A stretch of DNA of 64,000 nucleotides from Vulcanimicrobiota bacterium. GTDB taxonomy: Bacteria > Vulcanimicrobiota > Vulcanimicrobiia > Eremiobacterales > Eremiobacteraceae. Position numbers and translations under genes: made by a program. Positions within the stretch are counted from its first letter, which is position 1; each line of letters opens with the position of its first letter. Shown in pieces: positions 9,953 to 58,341 of the stretch. The notes under the pieces were generated by a model, which worked only from the letters and a program-made list of their open reading frames with translations, ran no database searches and had not been told where the DNA came from. The DNA is taken from the NCBI GenBank assembly GCA_963812135.1, contig CAWETU010000001.1, forward strand, positions 2,240,001 through 2,304,000. Direction: 5' to 3'.

Positions 9953-11944
9953 ATGCCACACAACACTCGGACCAAGGAGCGCCAGCCGAAAAAGACCCAG
10001 TCGCTGCCCACCGGCACGGTCACTTTTCTGTTCTCAGATATCGAAGGCAGCACTGAGCGTTGGGAAAAGCATCACGCGCCGATGAAGGCCGCGGTCGCGC
10101 GCCACGAACGTCTGATGCGAGATGCGATCGCCCGACATGATGGCCACGTCTTCAAGACCGTCGGCGATGCGTTTTGCGCCGCGTTCGCCACGGCGCCGAA
10201 CGCTGTGAACGCCGCGCTCGACGCGCAACGCGCGCTCAGCGCGGAAGATTTCTCGGCGGTCCACGGTTTGCGCGTCCGCATGGGTCTGCACACCGGCTAC
10301 GCGGAGGAACGCGACGCCGACTATTTCGGGCCGGCCGTCAACCGCGTCGCGCGGCTGGTGTCGATCGGCAACGGCGGCCAGATCCTGTTGTCCGGCGCAG
10401 CCTATGAATTAGTGCAGCACGACGCACCGCAGGAGATGCGCTTCTCAGACCTCGGCTCGCACCGGCTCAAAGACCTTGCCCAGCCCGAGCACGTGTGGCA
10501 AGTGACCGCGAAGGATATGCCGGACGAATTTGCGCGTCTCAATTCACTGGACACGCTGCCGAACAACCTGCCGGTTCAAGTTACGACCTTCCGCGGACGC
10601 GAGAAAGACCTAGAAGATCTGAAGGCACAGCTCGCCGAGCATCGATTGATCAGCCTCATCGGCGCCGGGGGCGTCGGCAAGACGCGACTGGCTGCCCAGC
10701 TCGGCGCGGAAGTGCTCGACCGATTTCCGGACGGTGTCTGGATCGCGGACCTCGCCTCGGTGACCGATGCCGGACTGGTGACGAGCGTGGTCGCCAAAAC
10801 GTTGGGCGTGAGCCAAGCGCAGGTGCGTCTGGTCGACGAGTCCATGACGCAATCCCTCAAACGTAAGCGGCTTCTTCTCGTGTTGGACAATTGCGAGCAC
10901 GTGCTTGAGGCGGCCGCTGCGCTCGCCGATTCCGTTCATCGGCAGTGCCCAGACGTGTGGATCCTCACCACCACGCGCCAAGCCATGGGGATAACCGGGG
11001 AAAAAGTGCTGCGACTCAGTTCGCTCGCAGTACCGGAGAAGATGGTCAGCCACGACGCAACCACCGCGCTGAGCTTCGGCGCGGTCGCGTTGTTCGCCGA
11101 TCGCGCGTCGCTTGTCGACCAAACATTTCGGCTCGGAGACGAAAACGCCTCAGCGGTATGCGATATCTGCCGCCGGCTCGATGGCATTCCGCTTGCGATC
11201 GAGCTCGCCGCCGCGCGCGTGAAGGGGATGAGCATCCCGACGCTCGCCAAGCGGCTCGACGAGCGCTTCAAGATCCTGACGGGCGGCAGCCGCACCGCGC
11301 TCCCGCGGCAGAAAACGTTGAGCGCCCTCTTCGATTGGAGCTACGACCTGCTTTCGCCGCAGGAGCGAACGCTATTCGCTCGCGCGGCGATTTTTGCCGG
11401 CGGCTTCACGCTTGACGCCGCGGCATCGGTGTGCGGCGGCGGGGAGATCGAATCCGCGGATGTGCTTGACCTGCTCGCGTCGCTGGCGGATAAGTCGCTG
11501 ATCCAGATCGACACGACCAGTGGACACGAGAGCCACCGCATGCTTGAATCCACTCGCCAGTACGCGCTCGAAAAACTCACCGCGAGTGCCGAGCACGAGT
11601 CACTTGCACGCCGGCACGCCGACTATTTCCGCGACGTCGCAAAGAAGGCTGAGGGCAGCTTCGGGTCGATGCCGCTGAGCGATTGGCTCGGGCGTCTCGA
11701 GCCGGATGTCGAGAACTTTCGCGCGGCGATGGATTGGGCACTCGTCAACGATCACGATGTGGCGCTTGGCGGCACGATCGCCGCTTCGTTGGAGATGTTG
11801 TGGTGGCACGGCGGCGTCGAGGCGGAGGGGTTCCGGTGGATCGATGCCGCGTTCCATAAGATCGACGAGAGCGAACACCCGGAGGTAGCGGCTGAACTGC
11901 GCCGGGCGCTCGGGCTTCTCATGTCGCGCGTGCTCTACTCCTAG
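9953..11944 (+). CDS. Class III adenylate/guanylate cyclase domain plus STAND NTPase regulator
   Basis: FLFSDIEGST, GDAF, GLHTG, GAGGVGKT, LDNCEH, LDGIPLAIELAA. Confidence 0.92.
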   Translation: MPHNTRTKERQPKKTQSLPTGTVTFLFSDIEGSTERWEKHHAPMKAAVARHERLMRDAIARHDGHVFKTVGDAFCAAFATAPNAVNAALDAQRALSAEDFSAVHGLRVRMGLHTGYAEERDADYFGPAVNRVARLVSIGNGGQILLSGAAYELVQHDAPQEMRFSDLGSHRLKDLAQPEHVWQVTAKDMPDEFARLNSLDTLPNNLPVQVTTFRGREKDLEDLKAQLAEHRLISLIGAGGVGKTRLAAQLGAEVLDRFPDGVWIADLASVTDAGLVTSVVAKTLGVSQAQVRLVDESMTQSLKRKRLLLVLDNCEHVLEAAAALADSVHRQCPDVWILTTTRQAMGITGEKVLRLSSLAVPEKMVSHDATTALSFGAVALFADRASLVDQTFRLGDENASAVCDICRRLDGIPLAIELAAARVKGMSIPTLAKRLDERFKILTGGSRTALPRQKTLSALFDWSYDLLSPQERTLFARAAIFAGGFTLDAAASVCGGGEIESADVLDLLASLADKSLIQIDTTSGHESHRMLESTRQYALEKLTASAEHESLARRHADYFRDVAKKAEGSFGSMPLSDWLGRLEPDVENFRAAMDWALVNDHDVALGGTIAASLEMLWWHGGVEAEGFRWIDAAFHKIDESEHPEVAAELRRALGLLMSRVLYS

Positions 11945-16869: not shown

Positions 16870-17019
16870 TTAGGGAAGCGCGTTGATCTCCGGTCGCTCG
16901 AAGACAAGCTTGGTCATCGAGACGATCGCGATGTAGTACGCGTGCATTTCGGCCCGCGTGAGCCGCTGCGTCGCGGCCGTTTGGCGTAGGTTCCCTTGGG
17001 TCAGGATCTGCTTTTTCAT
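16870..17019 (-). CDS. Small protein, 49 aa (MKKQILTQGNLRQTAATQRLTRAEMHAYYIAIVSMTKLVFERPEINALP)
   Basis: GGAGGTGG RBS, downstream terminator hairpin. Confidence 0.6.
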   Translation of the reverse strand: MKKQILTQGNLRQTAATQRLTRAEMHAYYIAIVSMTKLVFERPEINALP

Positions 17020-17117
17020 TGCCGCCACCTCCGTGGCCGTCATACTCTATATCGGTAAAACTAAGCGAGCAAGCACAACGTTACGGCTGCGCTGATGAAA
17101 GCCGCATTAGAGTCAGG

Positions 17118-17174
17118 AAAAAGAAAGAACCAGCGCTTTTACGCTGGTTCTGGTGCGGGTGCAGACCTGTCACT
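17118..17174 (-). ncRNA. Antisense sRNA, locus 1 (complementary to the tRNA-like RNA)
   Basis: TATAAT at 17179-17184; 24-nt complement of 17293-17316; GAACCAGCG/CGCTGGTTC stem plus U-tract. Confidence 0.7.
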
Positions 17175-17258
17175 TATGATTATACCGTCTCCTTCGTAGA
17201 GGATCGCAAGGGGCCGGCGTCAGACCTGTGCCGCCGCCCCCTTCCGCATAGCGGAGGC

Positions 17259-17326
17259 TGGAGGCGTCGGGAATCGAACCCGAATGCACGACGTGACAGG
17301 TCCGCACCCGCACCAGCGGCGCCCCC
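17259..17326 (-). ncRNA. 68-nt compact tRNA-like RNA (Ala acceptor stem, GUC anticodon), locus 1
   Basis: GGGGGCG/CGCCTCC-A acceptor, CCGC-TGGT-GCGG D arm, CTGTCAC loop, TCGGG-TTCGATT-CCCGA T arm; TTGACG-18-TATCTA upstream. Confidence 0.75.
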
Positions 17327-20762: not shown

Positions 20763-20819
20763 GAAAACAGGTCGACCGCGCCTTTCAGCGCGGTCGATTG
20801 CTAACACTGGACCGTCACC
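20763..20819 (-). ncRNA. Antisense sRNA, locus 2
   Basis: TTGCAG-17-TATAAT promoter (20847-20852/20824-20829); 13-nt exact complement of 20943-20955, extendable with G.U pairs; 10-bp terminator stem. Confidence 0.72.
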
Positions 20820-20906
20820 TTAAATTATACCGATTCCTGAAGCGAGCTGCAAGTGGGCAGCGTCTGGTCCGTGGTCGCTGCCCGCTCTCCGCTTTGTATC
20901 GGAGGC

Positions 20907-20974
20907 TGGAGGCAGCGGGACTCGAACCCGCGACACGCGGCTTGACGGTCCAGTGCCGGCACCTGCCCACCCCC
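20907..20974 (-). ncRNA. 68-nt compact tRNA-like RNA (Ala acceptor stem, GUC anticodon), locus 2
   Basis: GGGGGTG/TGCCTCC-A, GGC-AGGT-GCC, CC-GTC-AA loop, GCGGG-TTCGAGT-CCCGC. Confidence 0.75.
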
Positions 20975-21026
20975 AACCAACCGCCCCTATCACTGAAAGC
21001 GCTCTGGCCGTAAAGGTCTTGGGGCG

Positions 21027-47348: not shown

Positions 47349-48059
47349 TTATGAACAGAGGGTATTCCAAAACGATACCCCGCACGTTCTCGCTAAGGTT
47401 GAATACATAGCATGATCAAGCCAGATTGAGACCCTCTCTATTTTCTTGGAATATGCAATGACGTCGCTCTTGGTCAACGGGTCTGCCCGCTTATGGGTCA
47501 CGGCAGCCCGCGTATCAGATATCGAGCGCATAAATAACTCGCTGTTGAACTGCAATTTTTGGTCGAGAAACTGCTTTAGGTCATTAAACCCGATCCTCAC
47601 AAAAAGTGCCTTTAGATTATCAAGGCTGGGATACTTTCGTTTCCCGATGACCACTTCAGAATCGATGTGCGGTGGTAGCTGCGCGTTATCGTCAAGAAGA
47701 GTTCTATCAAGCCTCCGGATACCAGCTGCCTCGACAAGCTTTCTCTCGTTCAAAGAATAGGCGTAATGACGATAAGCCTCCAGATTCTGTTGATGAAACA
47801 ACCAGCTGCGGGTCTGGTCCGATACTGAGGATACCGTAAGGGCTTGAGTTATCATCTCACGGACCCAGTCAGACACTAGCGACGTGACGTATTCTTCGAG
47901 CGCAGAGTGCATTTGAACGACAACGCCTTGTAGCGCGGCTTGACGGATCTGGCTCTCTGAAGACAGCCTCAAGGTTTTAGTAGCCGCTTTAGCGACAACC
48001 GTTAGCGCACTCAAGCGATCTTGACATTCTCGCCTGGCCCGACTCATTTTGTAACTCAA
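47349..48059 (-). CDS. HEPN domain protein (MAE_28990/RiboL-PSP-like)
   Basis: H.ALEEYV and R-x4-H (RAAVTH); directly after DUF262. Confidence 0.72.
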   Translation of the reverse strand: MSYKMSRARRECQDRLSALTVVAKAATKTLRLSSESQIRQAALQGVVVQMHSALEEYVTSLVSDWVREMITQALTVSSVSDQTRSWLFHQQNLEAYRHYAYSLNERKLVEAAGIRRLDRTLLDDNAQLPPHIDSEVVIGKRKYPSLDNLKALFVRIGFNDLKQFLDQKLQFNSELFMRSISDTRAAVTHKRADPLTKSDVIAYSKKIERVSIWLDHAMYSTLARTCGVSFWNTLCS

Positions 48060-48073
48060 TATCGTCGATGCAC

Positions 48074-49188
48074 TTAGAGGGTTTCCAGAAATTGGCGAAA
48101 CCGATCTATTCGGCCACGGACTGCTTTCTCATCACTCGTCGCTCTCGAAATAAAACTCTTAAAGTCAGCATCAGCCGTCAGTAGTCTCCGCAACTTCTGC
48201 TGGAACTGATTAGGATCGTAGCTGCGCAGTCTTTCCCGGTCATTGTACAGGGCGATACCTACCATCTCCGCGTCGAAGAGAGCGGAATTGATTATCTTGC
48301 TGATATGGCCTAGACTGTCTATCGTTCTGAAGGCTAATGGTCCGAACAGGCTCGCACATATCTCAGCTACGTCTAGGAGTTCAGATACTCCATTGCCCTA
48401 GAAGGTTTTCAGTCGATTGATCGATGTCGTAAGACAAAATCGTTCAAAAAAACGTCGAGGGGTTTCTTATACAATTGCGCCTCGTAACGAAAAGCCCAGA
48501 ATCGCAGCACGGCTCCGAGGATCTCGTCCGATGATATCGGCCTTGTTTCGCAATGTGACGCCAATGGGTCGACGCTGCCAATCTTATCAACTTCGCGGAT
48601 CAACCTGCCGTAGTAGATTCCGTGTCGAAGCTCTTGCGCGGTGAGTTGCGCGGCGCCACTGTTTATTCGCTCGAATACATCAAACTTTATCTGCGGATGC
48701 GTTTCCTTCTTGATCGAGATAAAGCGTAGAGGTCTAGTAAGGATTTGTCGCTGGAATCGCGCATCCAAGTACAAACTTATTACCATTTAGGTCGGGATAA
48801 GTACGCAAACGTTCAAGCGCAAATTGGTTTTTGACAAACTTGTATATGCTAAGCAGCCTCTGATTGCCATCGATGACCGTGAGCTTGTTGTCTTGTTCCT
48901 CGTTCAGATATATTGCCGGAATAGGGCACTGGATCACAAGAGATTCGATGAGTCTCGATGCCTGCTCAACGGTCCATACGTAGCGGCGCTGGAAAGAAGG
49001 AACGTAGATATCACCGCGGTCGAGCGCTTCTACAATTGTGCTGACCGTAAAGTCAAAGGAATCGGTTACTAGCCTACGCTGATCCTTGGGAACATCAGTT
49101 CTTCAGGCTCGACATCTTTTGAGGATTCGGGGAAGAGCAAATCCGCCAGGTAAGCTTGGTTCCGACGTTCCTCTGTTTCCGCAGACAT
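48074..49188 (-). CDS. DUF262 (ParB-like/GmrS) domain protein, frameshifted
   Basis: PSFQRRYVW, SRLIES....PIP, IDGNQRL, FERINSG...L..QELR. Confidence 0.88.
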
Positions 49189-49265
49189 GACACCAACCTT
49201 TAAATGACATCTCGTTATGGGGCCGCGTGGTTACACTTCCGTCCTTCGAGCCTTCTCGTCCGCAA

Positions 49266-50151
49266 TCAACCCGCGCGTAAGAGTGGCGCATCTCTTACGC
49301 GGCCTTGGTTAAGTGCAGAACGACGAGAATCGCACGCGTGTAGACTCCCGGCTCCGTCTCCTTGATCGACCGGAATATGTTCCGCCAAAGCGCTAGGGCT
49401 CACAATCTTGGGAGTTGGTTTCGGACTCTCATCCAATATCCACAGGTAGATTGCGTAATTTGAAACGCTCAGCGCTGTTTCCCACTCGTGGCGCGTAAGC
49501 CAGAAGCGCGCTGAGTCCTCCAGGGTCGTAGTGGTCTTTACTTCAATGCAAAAGAAAGCATTGTCGTTAGCGGACTTTACTGAGGCGACGTCATATCCCG
49601 CGAGGTTTGTTTCGAGACCGATCCCACCTGGGATCATATCCCGTACGATCGCGTTCGTATTCAATGGTTAGTCTCTCACCCGCACGACCGATGCTAGTGA
49701 GATAAGTGTCGCGCAACCCGCGGACGCTGTTTCCCATTCTATCCCACCACTCGACGGTCTCCGCATCGTAGTTGTCGACGGATCCGCGTCCTTCAGGCAC
49801 TGCTTGACATCGGTCCCGATATAGTCCACCGTCTCTTTGCGCCCGCGAGGAATGAGTTGAGTCCACGGTGGCCGCTCCAGCTCAATTAGGTCGGTCAACT
49901 GCGCTCGGAGGGCACTTTGGGGATGGGGCTCCATCGAAATCCTTCGATCCCTTTCGGTAATTACAAGTCTTCCTTCCGCATCAAGTTTCACCCACTGGCC
50001 CCGTTGTGCAGCGTCAAGTATATGGGTTGATTTTGCGACCGCAAATCGGCTAAAGTGCTGCTCGAAATCGGCGGATTTGAGGTCGTTCCTGCTGATGAAA
50101 CCTAGAAGCTCCTGTACAGAGTAAAGTACACCAGACAGAGAAGGGATTCAC
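49266..50151 (-). CDS. DUF3883 (NOV C-terminal PD-(D/E)xK) domain protein, frameshifted
   Basis: IGRAGE.L..EYE, GYDV.S, IEVKTT, F.LTR.EW; GTG overlaps the helicase stop. Confidence 0.8.
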
Positions 50152-51929
50152 GCTGACTTCAAGTCACTCAATACGGCTTGGGCATCGTCGGGGGAAAAAT
50201 CGTCGGAATCAATGTCGACTAGTTCTGCGTCGATTTGGAGAGATCGATCGTTCAGAATGGACGCCATTTTGTCGACCTTCATGCGCAGGCGCCGATCGAC
50301 ATTCTGGTCGATCGAGTTCTCGCATTCTAGTATCTCGACTTCAGTGACAGCACCTAGGGGTAAACCGATGCGATGTATCCGGTGCTCGGATTGAAGATAT
50401 TGTGCCGCGTTATAACTTCGGTCAACATAAATTGCGTTATGGCAGACGGTATGCAGACTGATACTTTCACTCGCGGCCGCCGGATTAGCGACAAGAACGA
50501 ATGCCCGGCTGTCGTCGTGGAAACGCTTGATCTTGCGCTCCCGCGTGTTCTCGTCTTCCTCGCTCCCAGCATCGACCCCGCCATGGATGTAGTCGGCGCC
50601 TAGATCGCTAAGCCTTTGCGACAGCAATTCGACGTTTCCAACGAACCCTGACCAGATAATCGACTTCTTCCCCAAGCGGGCAAGTTCGCGGGCACGTTTA
50701 CAGGCAAAGGCGATCTTGGGGCTATCGCCCTCCTTTAGCGCGTTTGACAGTACATTCGATGTGGGTAGGTTCAGCTCACTGGAGAGCAGAGCTGGATTCG
50801 ATACTACTTGGAGCAGCTTCATGACGTGGCGCCCCAACGACCTCAGTGCGGTTCGATCCGGTGATGCGAGAAATCGTTCCCCTTGTCGGACCGCTTCAGT
50901 GCGCATTAGCTCATAGAGATGCCGCTGCTCTGGGTTCATCGACATTTGCCGAATAGTTCGGATTGGATCCGGAAGGTTGAGCTCAGCAAGAGTGGTGCGA
51001 ACGTACAGTGGCTGTATCAACTCTGTGACGTTTGCCTCATCAATTCTCGCCTCTGGATACAAAAAACTCAGCTGAGGGACCAAGTCCCCAACGGAATTCG
51101 GCAGAGGCGTCCCTGTCATGATCAACTTAGCCGAAGGCAAATGGCTTAAGTTCAGGACGACACTAGCGGTCTTTCCATCCAAACCTCGTTTAATTCGATG
51201 ACTCTCGTCGAGAAACATGAACGTAGGGTGCTCGTCCATGAATTCCGCAACATTTTCCCACACATTTTCACGTGCTAGTTGCTGGTACGTTATCAACATT
51301 ACATCTGGCTCGAGTTTAATTAGGCTCCGAATCGCTCTATGACCCTCTGTTAGCCTCGTTACGCGAGGTCCCTTGCCAAGGCATATTTCAATCTGCTCTT
51401 CCCAAACAGCAAATGCGTTCTTTGGGGCCACAACTAGAAGGCGAGAGTTTGGTGCGCGCTTGATTGAATAATATGCCAACGCTTCGGTCGTTTTTCCCGC
51501 GCCAGGAACAGAGAATGTGGCGCCAGCACTCAGTGAAGCTAACCGCGCCACATTACGCGCCTGATAGTCCTTAAGCTCCCGACGGAAGTTGCAGCGGCGA
51601 AGCATGGCTTCAAGTTCTGCCGGATCGACGGGTGCTGTGGCTCTGGCTTTGGTTAGTGAGCCCTCGCGTTCAAGCGCCGTCCGCAGCCTATCGCCGGTTT
51701 CGTCATCGACGTCGAGCGAGAGGTTGTGAACTTGTAAAATCCCACGAAGTTTGCCTCTGCAGGAGAGAAAGGACCACCAAGGCATTGACAACCGGGTATC
51801 AGACTCGGCGACGCACTCGTCCGAATGATCACGACGGTCCCGCCAAATGTCAAGCCATACTGACGTCGGGGAATCGAGGTATAGGACGGCGCGGCGGTGC
51901 TTGCTATCGTAACGTAAGTGGAGTTGCAC
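50148..51929 (-). CDS. SNF2-family DEAD/DEAH helicase
   Basis: LKDYQ, PGAGKT, LDESH, MTGTP.PN, SESISL, QSEHRIHRIG. Confidence 0.92.
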   Translation of the reverse strand: MQLHLRYDSKHRRAVLYLDSPTSVWLDIWRDRRDHSDECVAESDTRLSMPWWSFLSCRGKLRGILQVHNLSLDVDDETGDRLRTALEREGSLTKARATAPVDPAELEAMLRRCNFRRELKDYQARNVARLASLSAGATFSVPGAGKTTEALAYYSIKRAPNSRLLVVAPKNAFAVWEEQIEICLGKGPRVTRLTEGHRAIRSLIKLEPDVMLITYQQLARENVWENVAEFMDEHPTFMFLDESHRIKRGLDGKTASVVLNLSHLPSAKLIMTGTPLPNSVGDLVPQLSFLYPEARIDEANVTELIQPLYVRTTLAELNLPDPIRTIRQMSMNPEQRHLYELMRTEAVRQGERFLASPDRTALRSLGRHVMKLLQVVSNPALLSSELNLPTSNVLSNALKEGDSPKIAFACKRARELARLGKKSIIWSGFVGNVELLSQRLSDLGADYIHGGVDAGSEEDENTRERKIKRFHDDSRAFVLVANPAAASESISLHTVCHNAIYVDRSYNAAQYLQSEHRIHRIGLPLGAVTEVEILECENSIDQNVDRRLRMKVDKMASILNDRSLQIDAELVDIDSDDFSPDDAQAVLSDLKSA

Positions 51930-53171
51930 TACTTGGCCCAGTCTCGCAATCGCACAGCATTCCGATCAATCTCATCGAGCTGGTCTCTGACGCCTAGTTT
52001 CTCGGAACCGTCTGTAATGCCGCCGACGGCCGCTGCCAACGATGCGTTGGCCCGCTTTATCTGAGTGAGCACGAAGTCGCTGCGTTTCTTATCCTTTTCC
52101 AAACCCTTTCGGGTAGCGATCGTTTCGCGAACCAAAGAACGTATCTCGTCCTTGCGTTCCTCTGGGTAGCTATCAAGATTTCCAACGTAAATTGGTGCTT
52201 CAGCTTCACCCAACAGCTCGCCACCGGAACCCTTGTCTACTCCTTTGTCGTCCTTTTGCGTCAAGTCCGGTGCAACCGCATCACTTACTGGAGCGATGTA
52301 CTTCGCGACGTCGGCCACGTCTTGGTACACGCGGCCACCTTCTGGTTTGTCTATGAGCAGATAGGCTAATTCTTTGTAAAGAGATACGTTAGAAACAGGC
52401 ACCTTCTTTCGGTTTGCGCCGATCTGTCGAAATGCAAATTCGTCGTCGTCTACGGTACCGTACTGTTCGGTCTTACCGCGGTTCTTTAGATACTCTTCGG
52501 CGTAGCCGAGCATATCTAGGTACTCGCGTATCTCCGCCTCCTTGCGATTGTAGAGCGCGGCCAGTTTTTTATCATCAAACTTGTGCTCCTGTTGTCGTTC
52601 TCTCAACATGATTGCAAAAGATGTCCATGAATAGTCAGCCCGTATGTCTCGATCGATTTGTAGGCGCGCCTCGAGCTCGTCCAGCGACCGCTCATCGCAC
52701 GGAGGCAAGAGGACCGCTTGCACGTTGGCAAAGTTGGCGAAGGTATTTGGATCCTTTTCATGAGCTCGCGCATCGCGCAAAGACGCCTGTTGCCGTTGAG
52801 CACAAACCCATCGCAGGAGAGGATCAGGGGCTGCTCTTGCTTGTTCTTGCTAAAAAACTCCCGCAGACCTCGAGCCTTTGTCTAGGAGCCCATCCAATAT
52901 CTTATGCTGTACAGCCTGGGCACTTTCTGACTCCAAGTCTTTTGAAAAGAAGTCTTTCGGCAGGTCCTGATGAGTTGCGAGATATTCGCGCTGTGGCGCG
53001 CGCGTTCGGCCATTGGATAACCGATATTTCGGCATGTCAATGGGAACTGAGTAGATCGAGGAGATGCTGCAATTGGCCCTGAAAACTTACAGGGAAAGTT
53101 GGGCCGGGAGCGCTGCTCTTCAATTCGTCTAGCAAGTGCCGCCGTCGCGGCAGCGCCCATCCTAATGTCAT
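51929..53171 (-). CDS. ParB/Srx-like N-terminal domain protein, frameshifted
   Basis: YRLSNGRT and LNGNRRLCAMREL; ATGA overlap with the REase stop. Confidence 0.68.
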
Positions 53172-53637
53172 TTCTTGGCCTCCACACCCAGAACCAACAG
53201 TGGTAGTGTCACAATTTCGCGGAATAGGTCTAGTTCGCTAACAAGTCGTTCGTATTGCGCTAGGTTCTTGCCCAGTCGAACGGCCGTCCGTCTCTTCATA
53301 ACAAGAAATATGGCACCCCGCATCCCGCGTCGAAGATAGCAATATTGAAGCTTGAGTAGATCGGCATAGAGGCGGCTCATATTCCCCATTTGACGCATAG
53401 CCCGATGGAGTCCTTGAGGCTCGGAATCGTAACTTGCGAAATGGGATCAACTCGGACGCGGCTCGGCCAACCTCTGCGGTACAGCGCTGATAGTATTCCA
53501 CTTCTTAGCAATGGCGGCGTCAGCTCCCGGTCGGCCAGCGTCAGTGACTCCACGGCTTGAACAACCTCAACGACCAGACTTTGTGGGATAGCTTCAACCC
53601 CACCGCTGTGACTATGTGTGTCCAGTGTAAAATTCAT
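53168..53637 (-). CDS. BglII/BstYI-like type II restriction endonuclease, frameshifted
   Basis: L..RGW...IGLC.QMGNMSRLYADLLKLQY. Confidence 0.72.
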
Positions 53638-53996
53638 TCGGTTGCTTGTTCAAGCTAACAAACGCTAGACTGGGCGCTAAACCAGACTGTTACTATGCGT
53701 TAACCCCGGGGCAATCAAAATGGCCCTTAAGGAGTATATCGGCCCTTCTGACCCACCTCTTGCGAGCCCAGGGACCACCCGTCACGTCGGCGGCGACCCA
53801 TTGAGTAGCCCGCCAGGTGCTCGACACCCAATCCTCAGCTTGGGATTCGGTAGCGCCCGCAAGATGGCTTCTTTTCGACTTTTCGACCGCCCCTAGCGGC
53901 CAGCAGTCTTGCGAAAAGCTAGGATTGAAACGTAATTGTTTTCGGCACCTTAGCGCGTGGGGCACCACACACAGTCTTGCACTTACGGCTGAAGTG

Positions 53997-54988
53997 CTAG
54001 CCCCCGAAGAGATTTAATGAACGGTCAGCTTCCAACCGATCTGACAGAGCCTGCCACTCAGGTGGTACCAGAGACATCTTTGACTTAGCCGGATCCTGAA
54101 TCGGCTTGTCGGGTCTGTATCGTGCCACGCCTCGAAGGGCTTCCTTTAGACGCCTCTTTGCTTCGAGAACGTATTCGCTAACAATTTCAGCGCCCCAAAA
54201 TTGTCTATCGTTCAGCAATGCGGCGACGCCCGTTGTACCGACTCCTGCAAAGGATCGAACACGAGATCGCCAGGTTTTGATAGAGCCCGCACGAGCCTAG
54301 AAACCAAGACTATGGGAAACTGACATGGGTGAACCGTCTTCTCGACGTGGCCTGCCTTGACGTTCGGAATGTCCCAGACATCTTCTGGGTTCTTCCCCAA
54401 AGGATTCCCCGAAAGCTTTCCCTTGTTGGGACCTTTGTAGTGCGTCTTTCCCGGATATTTGGCCGGTATCCGAACTCCATCCAAGTTGAAGTGGTATTTG
54501 TCTGTCTTTGTATACCACATAATTGTTTCGTAGCGGCCACTAAACCGTCGTTTGGCGTGCAATCCGTGGCCAAACCGCCACACTATGCGATTCCGCAGCT
54601 GAACTCCGAGTCGCTTGAAGATGGGAGACAACTCAATGTCCAATGGGAATATCTCCCCTTGATCAATGAAGTTGCCAGTTTGCCAACAAATGCTACCCGT
54701 GGGTTTCAGTCGTGACACAATTTTTTCGAGGATAGATTCCTGCCACTGCAGGTATTTTGCAAGCTCTCTTTTCGTCTCGTAGGCTTTCCCGATGTTGTAT
54801 GGCGGGGAGGTGACGACAAGATCAAATATCTCACACGGGGGCAGCTGGTCAAGAAAGGCGCCTGCGTCCCCCTGCCACAGTAAGAGGCCCGGCAATCTTG
54901 CAGGCAGATTTGCTTTGATGATTTGAAGCGAGCGGCGATCTCTCGCTCGGTAACAAAATCGAACGCGACTGCCCGCAACCTCGCCCAA
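53997..54988 (-). CDS. Site-specific DNA methyltransferase (N4-C/N6-A, beta class), frameshifted
   Basis: VTSPPYN first, then HPCQFP and DPF.G.GTT. Confidence 0.92.
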
Positions 54989-55380
54989 CCTTTCTCGTGC
55001 CCACCAACTGGTGGGCCAAACACACGTTCGAGTGTGGCGTTAATTGTCTTTCTTTGCTAGCCCATGTTGTGGTCGGCCTTGTGGACCGTTTGTGAACAAG
55101 TCGAAAATGTCGTTGAGGAACGACAAACTTCTGTGCATTAGACGGAAACGAACGTTGGCCGGTGGGGCGCTCGAGGACGACACGCAGAACGCTAGCCTAG
55201 CAAAACTCGGGGCATCTCGAGCCCCTCAGCGGACCAGCCCAAGCCGTCTCTATCCTTGTCAAAGGCAGTCCGGCCGACGGCCAGCTCCGAGAACTCTTCC
55301 AGGCAGCTATACCTTCACAGTGGCCGCGCTTCGGCCGCCTCCAGAGTTTAGACTGGTCTTAGACTCCTAGGAAATCCAGC

Positions 55381-57255
55381 TCAAGAACTACCGGTAGCAA
55401 GACGACTTCGCACAAACTCTTCGGTTTCAACGTCCATGAAGTACACATAGCATCCCTTCATGCCGCGGGTGAGCAGTACTCGATACGTATTGCGGACATA
55501 ATGAACGAAGCTTTCCTTGGCTCGCTTGGCGACAACGGAGTCCTGAGAATACTCTTTCCGCCCGACCCATTCTCCGGTTACTTTGGAGTAAGCAAGGTGT
55601 TTTCCGAATATCACACCGACGTAGTCGAACTCGAAACCTTGGGCGGTGTAGATGCAGCCAATTTGAGAGAATCCGTTGGGGTCGGCGGCCCAAAACGAGG
55701 ACTTAGGGATGTCCCTCGCTAGCCGCCCGGCTTCAGGCCTCGCGTTCCAGGGCCGGTGAAATGTTCCAATCGTGACGTCGTCGACTAGCATACCGTCCGG
55801 CTTCGGATCAGACCATGGCCAGCAAAACCCGGCGACAAGACGGCCAGTAAAGCCCTCACTCACCCGAGCCTCGATCGCCGCGGCAAGCTCCTCAGGACTC
55901 TCAAGTATGCGGAAGTCAAAAGCATCTGAGGTTTCAAAGCACTCATCACTCGTTTCCCTGATTCCGAGTATGTTATCGACCCATGAAACGAAAGCTTCGG
56001 AGCCAGCACACCTAAACTGCGTATGAAGTTCTTCCTCCACCAGAGTGGCGTTGGCGCTTTCTGCTGCGTTCCTGACGAGATCCAACTGCCTATCTCTCCG
56101 GGGCGCACCACTTGATGGTCATGGATCAAGAATACCGCTACCTTCGCCGCATCGACGATCTCATTGATTTGGTAACGATCGGATCGATCGGACTTGGGCG
56201 TGAACCGGTCGTTGCTTGACTCTCTGATCCGGTGGGCCTCATCACAGATGACTACATCGAGTGCGTTATCTTCGGCATGTACGAAGCTATTGAAGTACTT
56301 GAACTGACTGGCTGCACGCCTCCCAACCTCGCGGCGCAGGTTCTCGGTGAACGCTCTGGAGCCAGTTGCGTGCTGTACAACAAAGCTCTCCTTTGCGAGC
56401 GTGGCCATGACGTTAACGGCGATGAGTGACTTTCCCGTTCCCGGGCCGCCCTTCACAAGAACTACCGCTTTCTTCGGACTATGGTAGCCCTTCCGAGCAT
56501 GACCGAGGATCGTATTATAGACCACGATTGCTCATCGAGGAGCGTATAAATGTTGTTCCTTGTATTACCTCAGCGACATGATCGAGTAACTTCTTGCTAG
56601 CCCGATACTTGCTCTGCAGCACCCGCTGTAGAACTTCATCCCCGCCGTCTTTGCTTACGCGGTCGCGGAGATACGAGGCAAGCTCCTCAGCTTGATTTCC
56701 CGCGAACATCGGACAGTCCGATAGCACCGCCTCGAATTTCTTGGCATGTAGCGGTGATTGTGGATCGGCTAAGATTATGGAGATAACTGCACGCTGAAAG
56801 GCCCACTGGCTATCCGACTCATGTAGACGGTCTGGCTGTCTATGAGGTATTGCCGATAGTGGCTCGCCTGAACTGAGGGATGAAGTCATTGGATCTCGAC
56901 CTCCGAGATACGTGATTACACACTCCTCGACATCTGAGGCTTCGGCCTTATCCCATTGCTTCAGCTCGATGATTACTGCGTTGTCGCGTCGTTGCGAATC
57001 GCGGCCTGTCAATAGGCAATCAAGACGTGCCGACGACAACGGCAGCTGAAGTTCAAGAATGATACCGTTATTCGTAAGTCGAGCGAATTGTAGATGGACG
57101 GAGAGTGCGGCTAACGAGTTGCGCCATGACCGCATTTCTGAGACCGAGGGAAGGTAGCCGAAGAGTCGTTGGAAGTTGAACTGTAGCTTATCGGCGAGCG
57201 TATGGCGCGCAGCATCGTCAAAGAACTGCTGAGTATTGCCTACGTAAAGCTGCAT
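55381..57255 (-). CDS. DUF2075 (Schlafen group 3-like) nuclease-helicase, frameshifted
   Basis: IIELKQW, GGPGTGKS, DEAHR, QFRC.GS, YTAQGFEFDY, NTYRVLLTRGMKG. Confidence 0.9.
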
Positions 57256-57274
57256 ATTGTCCCGTGCGGATCGA

Positions 57275-58341
57275 TCAAGCTGTTTCGTCGCTCCATTCGA
57301 ATCGCATGAGGCGCTCGTCGACCGCGACGTTCTTCGCCCACGCGTGCTCTCTTAAGAATAGCCTCGGCGAATTGGCGCGCCATCTGCGCCGCTTCCGGCG
57401 GTTCGATGATCTTCGCGTCGCCGCCGAAGCTGAGCGCCCAGGCGACGACCTCGCGCGGGTCGGTCACTTTGAACGCGATCTGAAGCGAGCCGTCGGGCAG
57501 CTCTTTGACCGACTCTTCTGCCGGCCAGCGGCGCGCCAGTACGTCGGCGACCCGTCGCGGCGCGATCTTCACCACGACCTTGCGCGGTTTGCCGGAGGTC
57601 GCGAAAATGCCAAACGAGTGGCGCAGGGTATCGTCGAGTTTTCGTTCTGCGTCGTATCCTTTGGCCGTCACTTCGTCGAGCACGGTCGGGTCGCTCATCC
57701 GGTCCAGGGCGAAGAACTTCGGGCGCTCTCCTCCTTCTTCGACGCCCCAGACGTAGATGCGACCGTTGTTATCGAACAGATCGTAGGGCACGATGTGACG
57801 CGCTGACACTGTACCGTCGGATGATTTCTTGTAGGTGAAGCCGAGGATGCGCCGTTCTTGGATGGCGCGTTCGCAGGCGGAGAGGTTCTCGTAGAATGCG
57901 GCGTTGACGCGCGGCTGCGGCTGCCACACGGGGAGCCGCTCCTTGACCGCTGGATCCATGCCGGCCAGCTGCGATTCCCATTGTTCGAATTGGGGGCCGA
58001 GCGTTTCCATGAACGGCGATCCCATGCGCAGCAGATCGATCCGCAGGCGGACCAGGATCTCGCGTTTGCGCGGATCCATCTGGCGTGCTCGGCCGAGGGT
58101 CCAGCCTTTTGGCACGGTGTGCATTTTCGTCTTTGGGTTGTAGTGGAGCGCGGCATCCCCACGCCGCGAGCTCTTTCTTGTAGCGCTTCCACGTGCTGTC
58201 GCTGAGGTGGTTTCTCCGAGGATTCTGTGCCGCTTGCTGCTTGGTGATCTGGCGGTCTACGTTCAGCCTGATCAGGAGATGACGGATCCCCGAGGCTTTG
58301 GCTCTGGCCTTGGCGGTGGCGTCGGTGTTGAGGTTTTTCAT
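57275..58341 (-). CDS. HTH-WYL-WCX transcriptional regulator, frameshifted
   Basis: F.Y......R...PY.L, F.LDRM, W.LSFG..A.IIEP. Confidence 0.88.

Follow-up and report, generated by a model that had tools for sequence, protein, structure and literature searches.

What would a bacterium do with an RNA that is shaped like a tRNA, carries the identity marks of tRNA-Ala, and is encoded beside an antisense RNA complementary to it? The question is raised by a locus of Vulcanimicrobiota bacterium (GTDB family Eremiobacteraceae; assembly GCA_963812135.1), found in a stretch of 64,000 nucleotides (contig CAWETU010000001.1, positions 2,240,001 to 2,304,000), which is called the window here and in which the positions below are counted. 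The locus (locus 2) comprises a gene for a tRNA-like RNA and, about 85 nt downstream on the same strand, a gene for a small RNA (sRNA) with its own promoter and terminator. A paralogue (locus 1) lies in the same window, and all statements on both loci are read from the minus strand. According to our analysis, the two adjacent RNA genes, with conserved signals, a covarying fold, invariant alanine marks and tRNA elbow, and a complementarity that co-varies between the partners, form a module that recurs in related bacteria. We regard it as well supported that this is a structured RNA family with more than 100 members, absent from Rfam 15. Tentatively, and at somewhat less than an even chance, we read the module as an RNA-RNA antagonistic pair, in which an alanine-accepting rogue tRNA is masked by an antisense antitoxin. 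To our knowledge, the RNA biology of the Vulcanimicrobiota/Eremiobacterota is unstudied.

A tRNA-like RNA and its antisense RNA

The genome (2.79 Mb, 64% G+C) has 47 ordinary tRNA genes, a normal one for tRNA-Asp(GUC) among them, and a single tmRNA gene at another place; ARAGORN reports no tRNA or tmRNA in the window. The RNA of locus 2 can fold into a cloverleaf of -30.2 kcal/mol, which is 0.5 kcal/mol from the minimum free energy (MFE) structure at -30.7 kcal/mol, and the features ascribed to it by the initial annotation (a length of 68 nt, G3.U70, A73, GUC at the anticodon position and C at position 33) were confirmed. Its 7-bp acceptor stem, GGGGGUG/UGCCUCC, contains the pairs G1-C72, G2-C71, G3.U70, and G4-C69 and is followed by an unpaired A73. 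The D stem (3 bp, loop AGGU) starts directly after G7, with no bases between it and the acceptor stem; the anticodon-like stem has 8 bp with a one-base bulge and carries the loop CCGUCAA; the T arm is GCGGG/UUCGAGU/CCCGC, and a variable loop is absent. The 3' tandem GCCUCC-A-GCCUCCG, pointed out in the same annotation, has exactly two occurrences in the window (17252 and 20900).

The sRNA of locus 2 contains the antisense segment UGACGGUCCAGUG (20817-20805), which forms 13 perfect pairs with positions 20-32 of the tRNA-like RNA and can be extended by G.U pairs, and the corresponding segment of locus 1 is 24 nt long with one G.U pair. A 13-nt perfect complement within ~157 nt downstream appeared in 0/2000 shuffles at each locus. 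The predicted duplex of the locus 2 sRNA has an energy of -34.1 kcal/mol with its own partner, compared to -21.1 kcal/mol with the locus 1 RNA and -22.4 kcal/mol with the best of the 47 real tRNAs, in agreement with the proposal that it matches locus 2 much better than locus 1. For the locus 1 sRNA, the predicted energies are -55.0 kcal/mol with its own partner, -26.7 kcal/mol with the locus 2 RNA, and -24.6 kcal/mol with the best real tRNA. The sRNA promoter of locus 2 had been called textbook: TTGCAG, a 17-nt spacer, and TATAAT are indeed present, but the label is overstated, as the -35 hexamer fits TTGACA at 3/6 positions and the site is missing from the results of the promoter scan.

Covariation of the fold and the alanine identity set

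Locus 2 was described as a diverged second copy with the same length and fold, and this holds, with 37/68 ungapped positions identical between the two 68-nt RNAs. The further claim that every stem differs compensatorily stands for the D stem (CCGC/GCGG at locus 1, GGC/GCC at locus 2), the T-stem pair 49-65 (U-A vs. G-C), and the anticodon stem, but not for the acceptor, where both differences arise from a change on one side only, which gives a wobble pair (C6-G to U6.G and G7-C to G7.U). The acceptor of locus 1, GGGGGCG/CGCCUCCA, is identical to that of the tmRNA of this genome. No further copies in the genome were returned by blastn-short with both modules as queries.

For the analysis of the family, a working set of 101 distinct modules was obtained after duplicate removal from the searches described below; a single module is from G129, a genome marked as unpublished, and none of our conclusions depends on this module. 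The counts are derived from metagenome-assembled genomes (MAGs), in which some taxon labels may be binning errors, and the members are related, so that counts do not represent independent events. In an alignment of 72 distinct rows (A4), which was fitted to the model and in this way favours structure, the slide control is still clear: standard pairs occupy 95.0% of the cells, compared to 75.2% in shuffles and at most 48.6% with the partners slid, and 21/27 pairs change on both sides. Selection on structure, as proposed initially, is thus supported by family-wide covariation.

The positions that do not take part in this variation are those of alanine identity. G1-C72 and G3.U70 are present in 72/72 rows of A4, G2-C71 in 69/72, and G4-C69 in 67/72, while A73 is found in 101/101 modules (G3.U70 in 96/101 by a separate parse); the acceptor positions 5-7 covary while the alanine set stays fixed or nearly so. 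The elements reported to constitute the bacterial alanine identity set, A73, G2-C71, G3.U70, and G4-C69 (PMC9976931), are all found. The elbow is conserved as well: a D hairpin with “GG” in its loop, “GG” being a condition of the search, was recognized in 90/101 modules (the other 11 have none by that rule), the loop is UGGU(G) in 57 of these 90, and the T loop is UUCGAUU in 79/101.

A full alanine identity set would also suit a regulated and non-toxic alanine carrier, used for a conditional (“adaptive”) recoding of common codons to alanine or as a donor for a non-ribosomal transferase of the cell wall or of lipids, with the sRNA setting the dose. The 79-nt form of the second family (f2) often occupies the same chromosomal place, with a gene of the uracil-DNA glycosylase (UDG) family downstream in 11/93 loci, which suggests vertical inheritance and not a selfish element. 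However, no transferase gene is linked to the module, the module is patchy even within one genus (4/6 other genomes), and a hypervariable arm co-evolving with an antisense RNA would be unexpected for a mere donor. We consider such a carrier improbable.

The ends of the RNA raise another possibility. The leader is predicted to pair with the bases from A73 onward (Table 1), and in A4 the pair U-1:A73 is found in 70/72 rows, position -2:74 is C-G in 57, U-A in 8, and U.G in 6, and G-3:C75 is found in 69; G-3 itself is nearly invariant (96/101 modules). Among the 47 real tRNAs of the genome, pairing of the leader with positions 73-75 (at least three pairs) occurs in one, which is tRNA-His. CCA is not encoded in the tRNA-like genes, and the GCC that follows A73 at locus 2 pairs with the leader. 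The RNA could act as an uncharged mimic, which keeps AlaRS, RNase P, EF-Tu, or SmpB occupied or goes into the A site without an amino acid, retaining paired ends in its mature form, with the sRNA as its off-switch. The conserved and covarying leader-trailer helix, which probably begins at the transcription start, the missing CCA, and the identity of the locus 1 acceptor with that of tmRNA speak for this. The missing CCA is not telling, however, because about half of the real tRNA genes of the genome also lack it. In the mascRNA of MALAT1, an extended acceptor stem does not prevent processing by RNase P, and this leader-trailer extension is reported to matter for the step (PMC8457004). The uncharged mimic is, in our opinion, about as hard to credit as the alanine carrier.

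The antisense partner follows the anticodon arm

Within 260 nt downstream of the tRNA-like gene, a terminator-like hairpin with a T tail was found in 76/101 modules, and 70 of these 76 have a promoter of the form TTGNNN-N16-18-TANNNT (spacer of 17 nt in 61), giving a predicted sRNA of ~65 nt. Pairing was measured as the best ungapped duplex between anticodon arm and sRNA with at most one mismatch. By this measure, the median number of pairs is 15 for cognate and 8 for non-cognate partners, and at least 12 pairs are formed by 67/69 cognate combinations, compared to 148/1380 non-cognate ones, many of the latter between close relatives. Mean whole-duplex energies were -53.1 kcal/mol (cognate) and -35.1 kcal/mol (non-cognate), and the cognate partner was ahead of all 10 random partners in 58/76 modules. 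No part of the RNA is more variable than the anticodon stem, which means that three strands vary in concert. Changes in this hypervariable arm are followed by the sRNA, in support of the suggestion that locus-specific pairing is under selection.

In most of the modules that were read (locus 1, L002, L003, L004, L005, L006), the long antisense duplex has exactly one G.U pair or mismatch. This single imperfection could reflect drift or the avoidance of a perfect long duplex.

The roles of the two RNAs could also be reversed. The sRNA would then be the active regulator, with real targets elsewhere (the anticodon loop of tRNA-Asp, tRNA-Ile, or tRNA-Val, or mRNAs), and the tRNA-like RNA would titrate it as a decoy or sponge, mimicking the true anticodon loop and winning the competition by its extra complementarity. 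The real tRNA-Asp of this genome has the same loop as the locus 1 RNA, CUGUCAC, the loops of the family resemble those of tRNA-Ile, tRNA-Val, and tRNA-Asp, and real tRNA-Asp is the second-best of the 47 tRNAs for the locus 1 sRNA (-24.5 kcal/mol, compared to a median of -17.3 kcal/mol). A decoy would, however, have no need of the invariant G3.U70 and A73 or of a tRNA elbow. The complement of the first 12 seed nucleotides occurs once in the genome for locus 1 and twice for locus 2 (the second site was not inspected), and blastn-short with both modules gave no other long complement in the genome. Moreover, the seeds differ between loci and between species, so there is no shared conserved mRNA target. 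A decoy function appears unlikely to us, if less so than the carrier or the uncharged mimic.

The anticodon-like loop and codon use

Among 89 folded anticodon-arm hairpins, 33 have 7-nt loops and 27 have 9-nt loops. The triplets of the 7-nt loops are GUC (11), GAC (8), GAU (6), GAG (2), and others (6); 21 of these loops carry U33 and 10 carry C33, with A37 in 23 and C37 in 8. The centers of the 9-nt loops are GAU (12), CGA (10), and others (5), and CGA shifted by one base reads GAC or GAG. The triplet is therefore constrained (Y-G-W-Y, with G34 and A or U at 35) and not fixed, and the loop is not always tRNA-like. Absent covariation or a freely varying anticodon had been named beforehand as findings that would count against selection on structure and pairing: covariation is strong, and the triplet, although not fixed at GUC, is constrained. 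A device specific for aspartate was ruled out, as the triplet varies across the family.

The triplets GAU, GAC, GAG, and GUC would read ATC, GTC, CTC, and GAC, which rank 4, 5, 7, and 8 among the codons in 718 long open reading frames (ORFs) of the genome; apart from codons for Ala, Gly, and Arg, no others are used more. These ranks fit a device that mis-inserts alanine, but they provide a hint only, because the triplets are one mutation apart and the copies are kin.

Proposed mechanism and its weight

In the antagonistic pair that we prefer, the tRNA-like RNA, once processed and CCA-tailed, would be charged with alanine. The charged RNA would act on the ribosome as a rogue tRNA, either inserting alanine at very common codons (GAC/GAU at this locus) or jamming decoding. 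The single-stranded 5' end of the sRNA, whose complementarity covers the D arm, the 5' strand of the anticodon stem, and the anticodon loop, would bind no other RNA of this kind than its own partner and would keep the tRNA-like RNA unfolded or mark a duplex of 15-24 bp for cleavage of the RNase III type. AlaRS is reported to ignore the anticodon, and a non-alanine anticodon would give misincorporation of alanine (PMC9976931; 10.1101/2022.11.23.517754); in yeast, 36/60 anticodon variants of tRNA-Ala are reported to mistranslate and to slow growth (10.1101/2022.11.23.517754). The patchy, multi-copy, and sometimes tandem spread of the module was counted in favor of a toxin-antitoxin-like reading, and many type I toxin-antitoxin families are distributed in the same manner. 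The combination of a strong antisense promoter with a stable, structured target, as in type I systems, counts for this reading too.

A bolder version, which we hold to be possible but doubtful, describes an all-RNA toxin-antitoxin. An Ala-charged rogue tRNA would rewrite the most used codons to alanine (Asp here; Ile, Val, or Leu in sister copies), the sRNA would mask its arm, and arm and sRNA would co-evolve so that the copies stay private, the whole perhaps originating from tRNA-Asp.

Several points weigh against the antagonistic pair. The core of the RNA is non-canonical, with an anticodon stem of 7-8 bp with a bulge and no variable loop, and C33 (10/33), C37 (8/33), and 9-nt loops (27/89) are frequent. 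Transcription, processing, charging, any toxicity, and the direction of control are inferred. The leader-trailer helix is closed, unlike in the real tRNAs of this genome, and the ends of the RNA could perhaps never be opened. Either partner, or neither, may be harmful. The pattern of codon ranks rests on few related triplets. Furthermore, the constraint on the loop could instead serve fast antisense pairing via a U-turn loop, an idea that comes from work on antisense RNAs.

Whatever its function, the module provides a new structured-RNA family with strong covariation and an invariant alanine set. It offers a natural system for studying AlaRS identity on a minimal scaffold, the orthogonality of paralogous RNA pairs, and the leader-trailer control of tRNA-like maturation, and an anticodon-masking RNA would be useful to synthetic biology as an off-switch for suppressor or mistranslating tRNAs.

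Gene layout at the two loci

The coordinates of the features are collected in Table 1. From the promoter geometry, the transcription start of the tRNA-like gene is expected at about -3/-4, near G-3. A hairpin at the place of trailer hairpin 1 is also present in the relatives that were read, with a different sequence. In relatives belonging to the first family (f1), the loop of trailer hairpin 2 repeats 6-10 nt of the sRNA seed (as seen by eye), and this seed-like loop is possibly a second, cis-acting mask.

Table 1. Positions of the tRNA-like RNA genes, the sRNA genes, and their signals in the window.
Feature	Position	Strand	Details
tRNA-like RNA, locus 2	20974..20907	-	68-nt cloverleaf, read from sequence and folding
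-35-like hexamer TTTACG of the tRNA-like gene, locus 2	21009..21014	-	from sequence; TTG-type motif at -38..-33 across the 101 family members
-10-like element TGATAG, locus 2	20987..20992	-	separated from the -35 by 16 nt; G(G/T)GAT in the family
Leader GGUU, locus 2	20975..20978	-	pairs with A73-G74-C75(-C76); acceptor helix extended to 10-11 bp
Trailer hairpin 1 (CUCCG/CGGAG), locus 2	20887..20904	-	formed by the second GCCUCCG repeat, after the GCC following A73
Trailer hairpin 2 (GGGCAGCG/CGCUGCCC), locus 2	20855..20883	-	13-nt loop ACCACGGACCAGA, like the sRNA seed; abuts the sRNA -35
sRNA promoter TTGCAG-17-TATAAT, locus 2	20824..20852	-	TTGCAG 20852-20847, TATAAT 20829-20824
sRNA (~58 nt), locus 2	20763..20821	-	antisense segment, then terminator stem-loop 20797-20772 and U tail
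tRNA-like RNA, locus 1	17326..17259	-	68 nt, loop CUGUCAC; MFE fold is the cloverleaf
sRNA gene, locus 1	17116..17209	-	TTGCGA, 19-nt spacer, TATAAT (17184-17179); antisense 17173-17150; terminator 17151-17126

No terminator was found between the tRNA-like gene and the sRNA gene, and in a predicted read-through transcript both partners would pair in cis (z-scores of -4.55 and -6.56). The two loci bracket a 3.4-kb block in identical orientation. Taken together with mascRNA as the best Rfam match (21.1 bits), the cis pairing and the flanking copies could be seen as pointing to a processing signal, at which cuts by RNase P and RNase Z would release the flanking RNAs as in the case of mascRNA, or to a relic of mobile DNA, with the copies left behind by integration into tRNA genes. 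The mascRNA match stays far under the gathering score of 42.5, however, and the sRNA is preceded by a conserved promoter of its own. Each copy is a whole module, diverged and covarying, unlike partial duplicates of the att type; no integrase is linked, and only one convincing module was present among four matches on viral contigs. Either origin seems very improbable.

Just downstream of the locus 1 sRNA lies an ORF of 57 aa (49 aa from MKKQ; 16870-17043, minus strand) with no Pfam match. DNA resembling it is found near modules or near a dacB-like gene in the genomes G006, G005, G002, and G042, which may represent linkage or mere synteny.

Members and distribution of the family

A BLAST search over 41 relatives gave homologues, each of which, by eye, has a downstream sRNA complementary to its own anticodon arm. 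A covariance model (R1) built from three gapless members matched 13/32 genomes of the family, with 0-5 copies each, and 26/151 genomes of the class. All of the 39 R1 matches that were read have the full layout except G045:C1:593894, which is decayed and without an sRNA, and G009, which has an aberrant 5' end. A broader model (R2), applied to a phylum sample of 151 genomes with a threshold of E <= 1e-7, detected the module in 3/8 genomes of family f1 and 33/71 of family f2; no member was counted in the 70 genomes of 19 other families searched with it. In other families of the phylum, R2 gave weak matches (38-45 bits); the three of these loci that were checked contain ordinary tRNA-Asp genes, and the weak matches were not accepted as members.

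Real tRNA-Asp genes of other families of the phylum (L197, G176:C100) share with the module the 5' acceptor strand GGGGGCG, the loop context CCUGUCACG, and the T arm, and carry G4.U69. By sequence likeness, the mimic family may have descended from tRNA-Asp, the wobble pair having moved and A73 having replaced G73.

A degenerate pattern run over one genome per GTDB species yielded at least 123 loci, of which 97 (L055-L154 minus three duplicates of neighboring loci) were subjected to cmsearch. Among the matches listed, there were 73 matches in 63 loci, and the labels of these 63 loci are of the Eremiobacterota type in 52 cases, “bacterium” only in 3, and of other phyla in 8. In the NCBI taxonomy, Baltobacteraceae, Aquilonibacter, and Elarobacter are placed, and Cybelea is listed, in Vulcanimicrobiota, family Vulcanimicrobiaceae. 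Nearly all of the 101 modules come from two families of Vulcanimicrobiota (Eremiobacterota). Three MAGs with another or no phylum label and A+T-rich surroundings (L095, L107, L110) contain the module in full, including the promoter, the terminator, and an sRNA complementary to its partner; provided that the binning is correct, the family extends beyond Vulcanimicrobiota.

The pattern scan of IMG/VR gave four matches. One of them, L201 (IMGVR_UViG_3300047171_000080, 320-480), has all parts of the module in the common 79-nt form; its contig, of 64.5 kb, is classified as viral. The other three (L200, L202, L203) were rejected, since they look like ordinary or other phage tRNA-like genes (L203 scored 27.5 bits). 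Public sequencing runs sharing sequence words number 13 and are soil metagenomes, one RNA run having 0.05 of the words; these shares say nothing about habitat.

Tandem copies were encountered at L138 (contig CAVWIX010000003.1, 300-1313), where four modules stand head to tail, ~311 nt apart, with near-identical scaffolds and different anticodon arms. At least one of the sRNAs there is imperfect on its own arm (~3 mismatches) and perfect on the arm of the module in G076; among the three copies compared, the cognate partner is still the best of its row. At L025 (G011:C15), the module at 141518-141594 and its sRNA are succeeded by a second module that is truncated at the 5' end and retains only the T arm, the 3' strand of the acceptor, the trailer hairpins, and an sRNA-type promoter; this remnant resembles a tandem copy in decay. 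A comparison of gene order within the genus gave no empty site by which insertion or deletion of the module could be traced, since the order is too scrambled at an identity of 66-80%.

Genomic neighborhood

The neighbors of both loci encode a PF04185 phosphoesterase, three ORFs without a Pfam match, and an S13 D-Ala-D-Ala carboxypeptidase. After clustering of 2182 ORFs around 93 loci, no recurrent protein partner beyond local synteny was found. The top clusters were spurious ORFs over the conserved RNA, shared only through conservation of the RNA sequence. The UDG-family gene (11/93 loci, PF03167 confirmed) and a glycyl-tRNA synthetase-like gene recognized by eye (7 loci; Pfam did not confirm it) were rejected as partners, as their presence reflects synteny.

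Elsewhere in the window, positions 9953-11944 (plus strand) encode a 663-aa protein with an adenylate/guanylate cyclase domain (PF00211) and an NB-ARC/STAND NTPase, an architecture often found in signaling or defense proteins. The G+C content at 48000-58000 is 0.51-0.57, compared to ~0.62 elsewhere in the window, and the segment may be a foreign island. In the rest of the genome, the 94-nt “tRNA-Cys” called by ARAGORN at G000:C1:1985591-1985684 does not look like a tRNA and is probably a false call.

Comparison with known systems

Neither the window nor eight family loci contain a match to an Rfam 15 family at its gathering score. In a permissive scan, the best matches are mascRNA (RF01684; 21.1 bits, gathering score 42.5) and canonical tRNA (RF00005; 18.6 bits, gathering score 29); YrlA (15.8 bits, gathering score 69) and tmRNA_permuted (10.5 bits, gathering score 47) also appear, and none of these was accepted, on account of the scores. 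The canonical tRNA shape is shared in part: the acceptor stem has 7 bp, the T stem has 5 bp, and the T loop is 7 nt long and of the UUCRANY type. The canonical core is not: locus 2 lacks linkers and a variable loop, has an 8-bp bulged anticodon stem, and carries C33.

The RNA shares with tRNA-Ala and its engineered anticodon variants the elements G1-C72, G2-C71, G3.U70, G4-C69, and A73, but at locus 2 it has 68 nt and a non-canonical core, and the mimic is natural, multi-copy, and coupled to an antisense RNA gene. With the tRNA-like domain of tmRNA it has in common G3.U70, A73, and the T arm, as well as, at locus 1, the acceptor; unlike tmRNA, it lacks an mRNA-like part, pseudoknots, and a tag frame, and it has a full closed anticodon-like hairpin. 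mascRNA is likewise a small tRNA-like cloverleaf with an extended acceptor stem, but it is eukaryotic, has no antisense partner, and is not defined by the alanine set. The Rfam motifs treated in a 2026 preprint on three bacterial tRNA-mimic families do not match the module.

Some allo-tRNAs combine G3:U70 with non-alanine anticodons, and some are reported to be toxic in E. coli and to lie near toxin-antitoxin genes (Mukai et al., PMC5389517). The word “antisense” does not occur in that paper, which comes closest in spirit to the present case. Allo-tRNAs are described there with acceptor/T stems of 8/4 or 9/3 (PMC5389517), whereas the module has 7/5, or 10/5 if the leader-trailer pairs are counted. 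It also lacks a variable arm. In allo-tRNAs this arm is long.

In type I toxin-antitoxin systems (hok/sok, Ibs/Sib), an antisense RNA with a strong promoter acts on a stable structured partner, and the systems are multi-copy, sometimes tandem, and paralogue-specific. The module resembles them in its short antisense RNA with its own promoter and terminator beside the target. Its target, however, is a covarying non-coding tRNA mimic and not the mRNA of a small hydrophobic peptide, and its genes stand in tandem on the same strand, without overlap. Type VIII systems (SdsR/RyeA, CreT/CreA) combine an RNA toxin with an RNA antitoxin, and CreT acts through the tRNA pool. In the module, too, both partners would be RNAs, with strong predicted complementarity; unlike type VIII systems, it has no Cas genes, CRISPR-like repeat, or cis-overlap, and the putative toxin is itself tRNA-shaped. 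Eight classes of toxin-antitoxin systems are recognized (PMC8610362).

In a full-text search of the literature, no paper was found that describes a tRNA-like RNA with an antisense sRNA dedicated to it. The neutralization of an RNA by its antisense partner belongs to a known class of mechanism, whereas a tRNA mimic as the target is not known within it. If the reading as an antagonistic pair is true, the module would be the first natural tRNA-shaped RNA restrained by its own antisense RNA, and it could be the first toxin to act by deliberate mistranslation.

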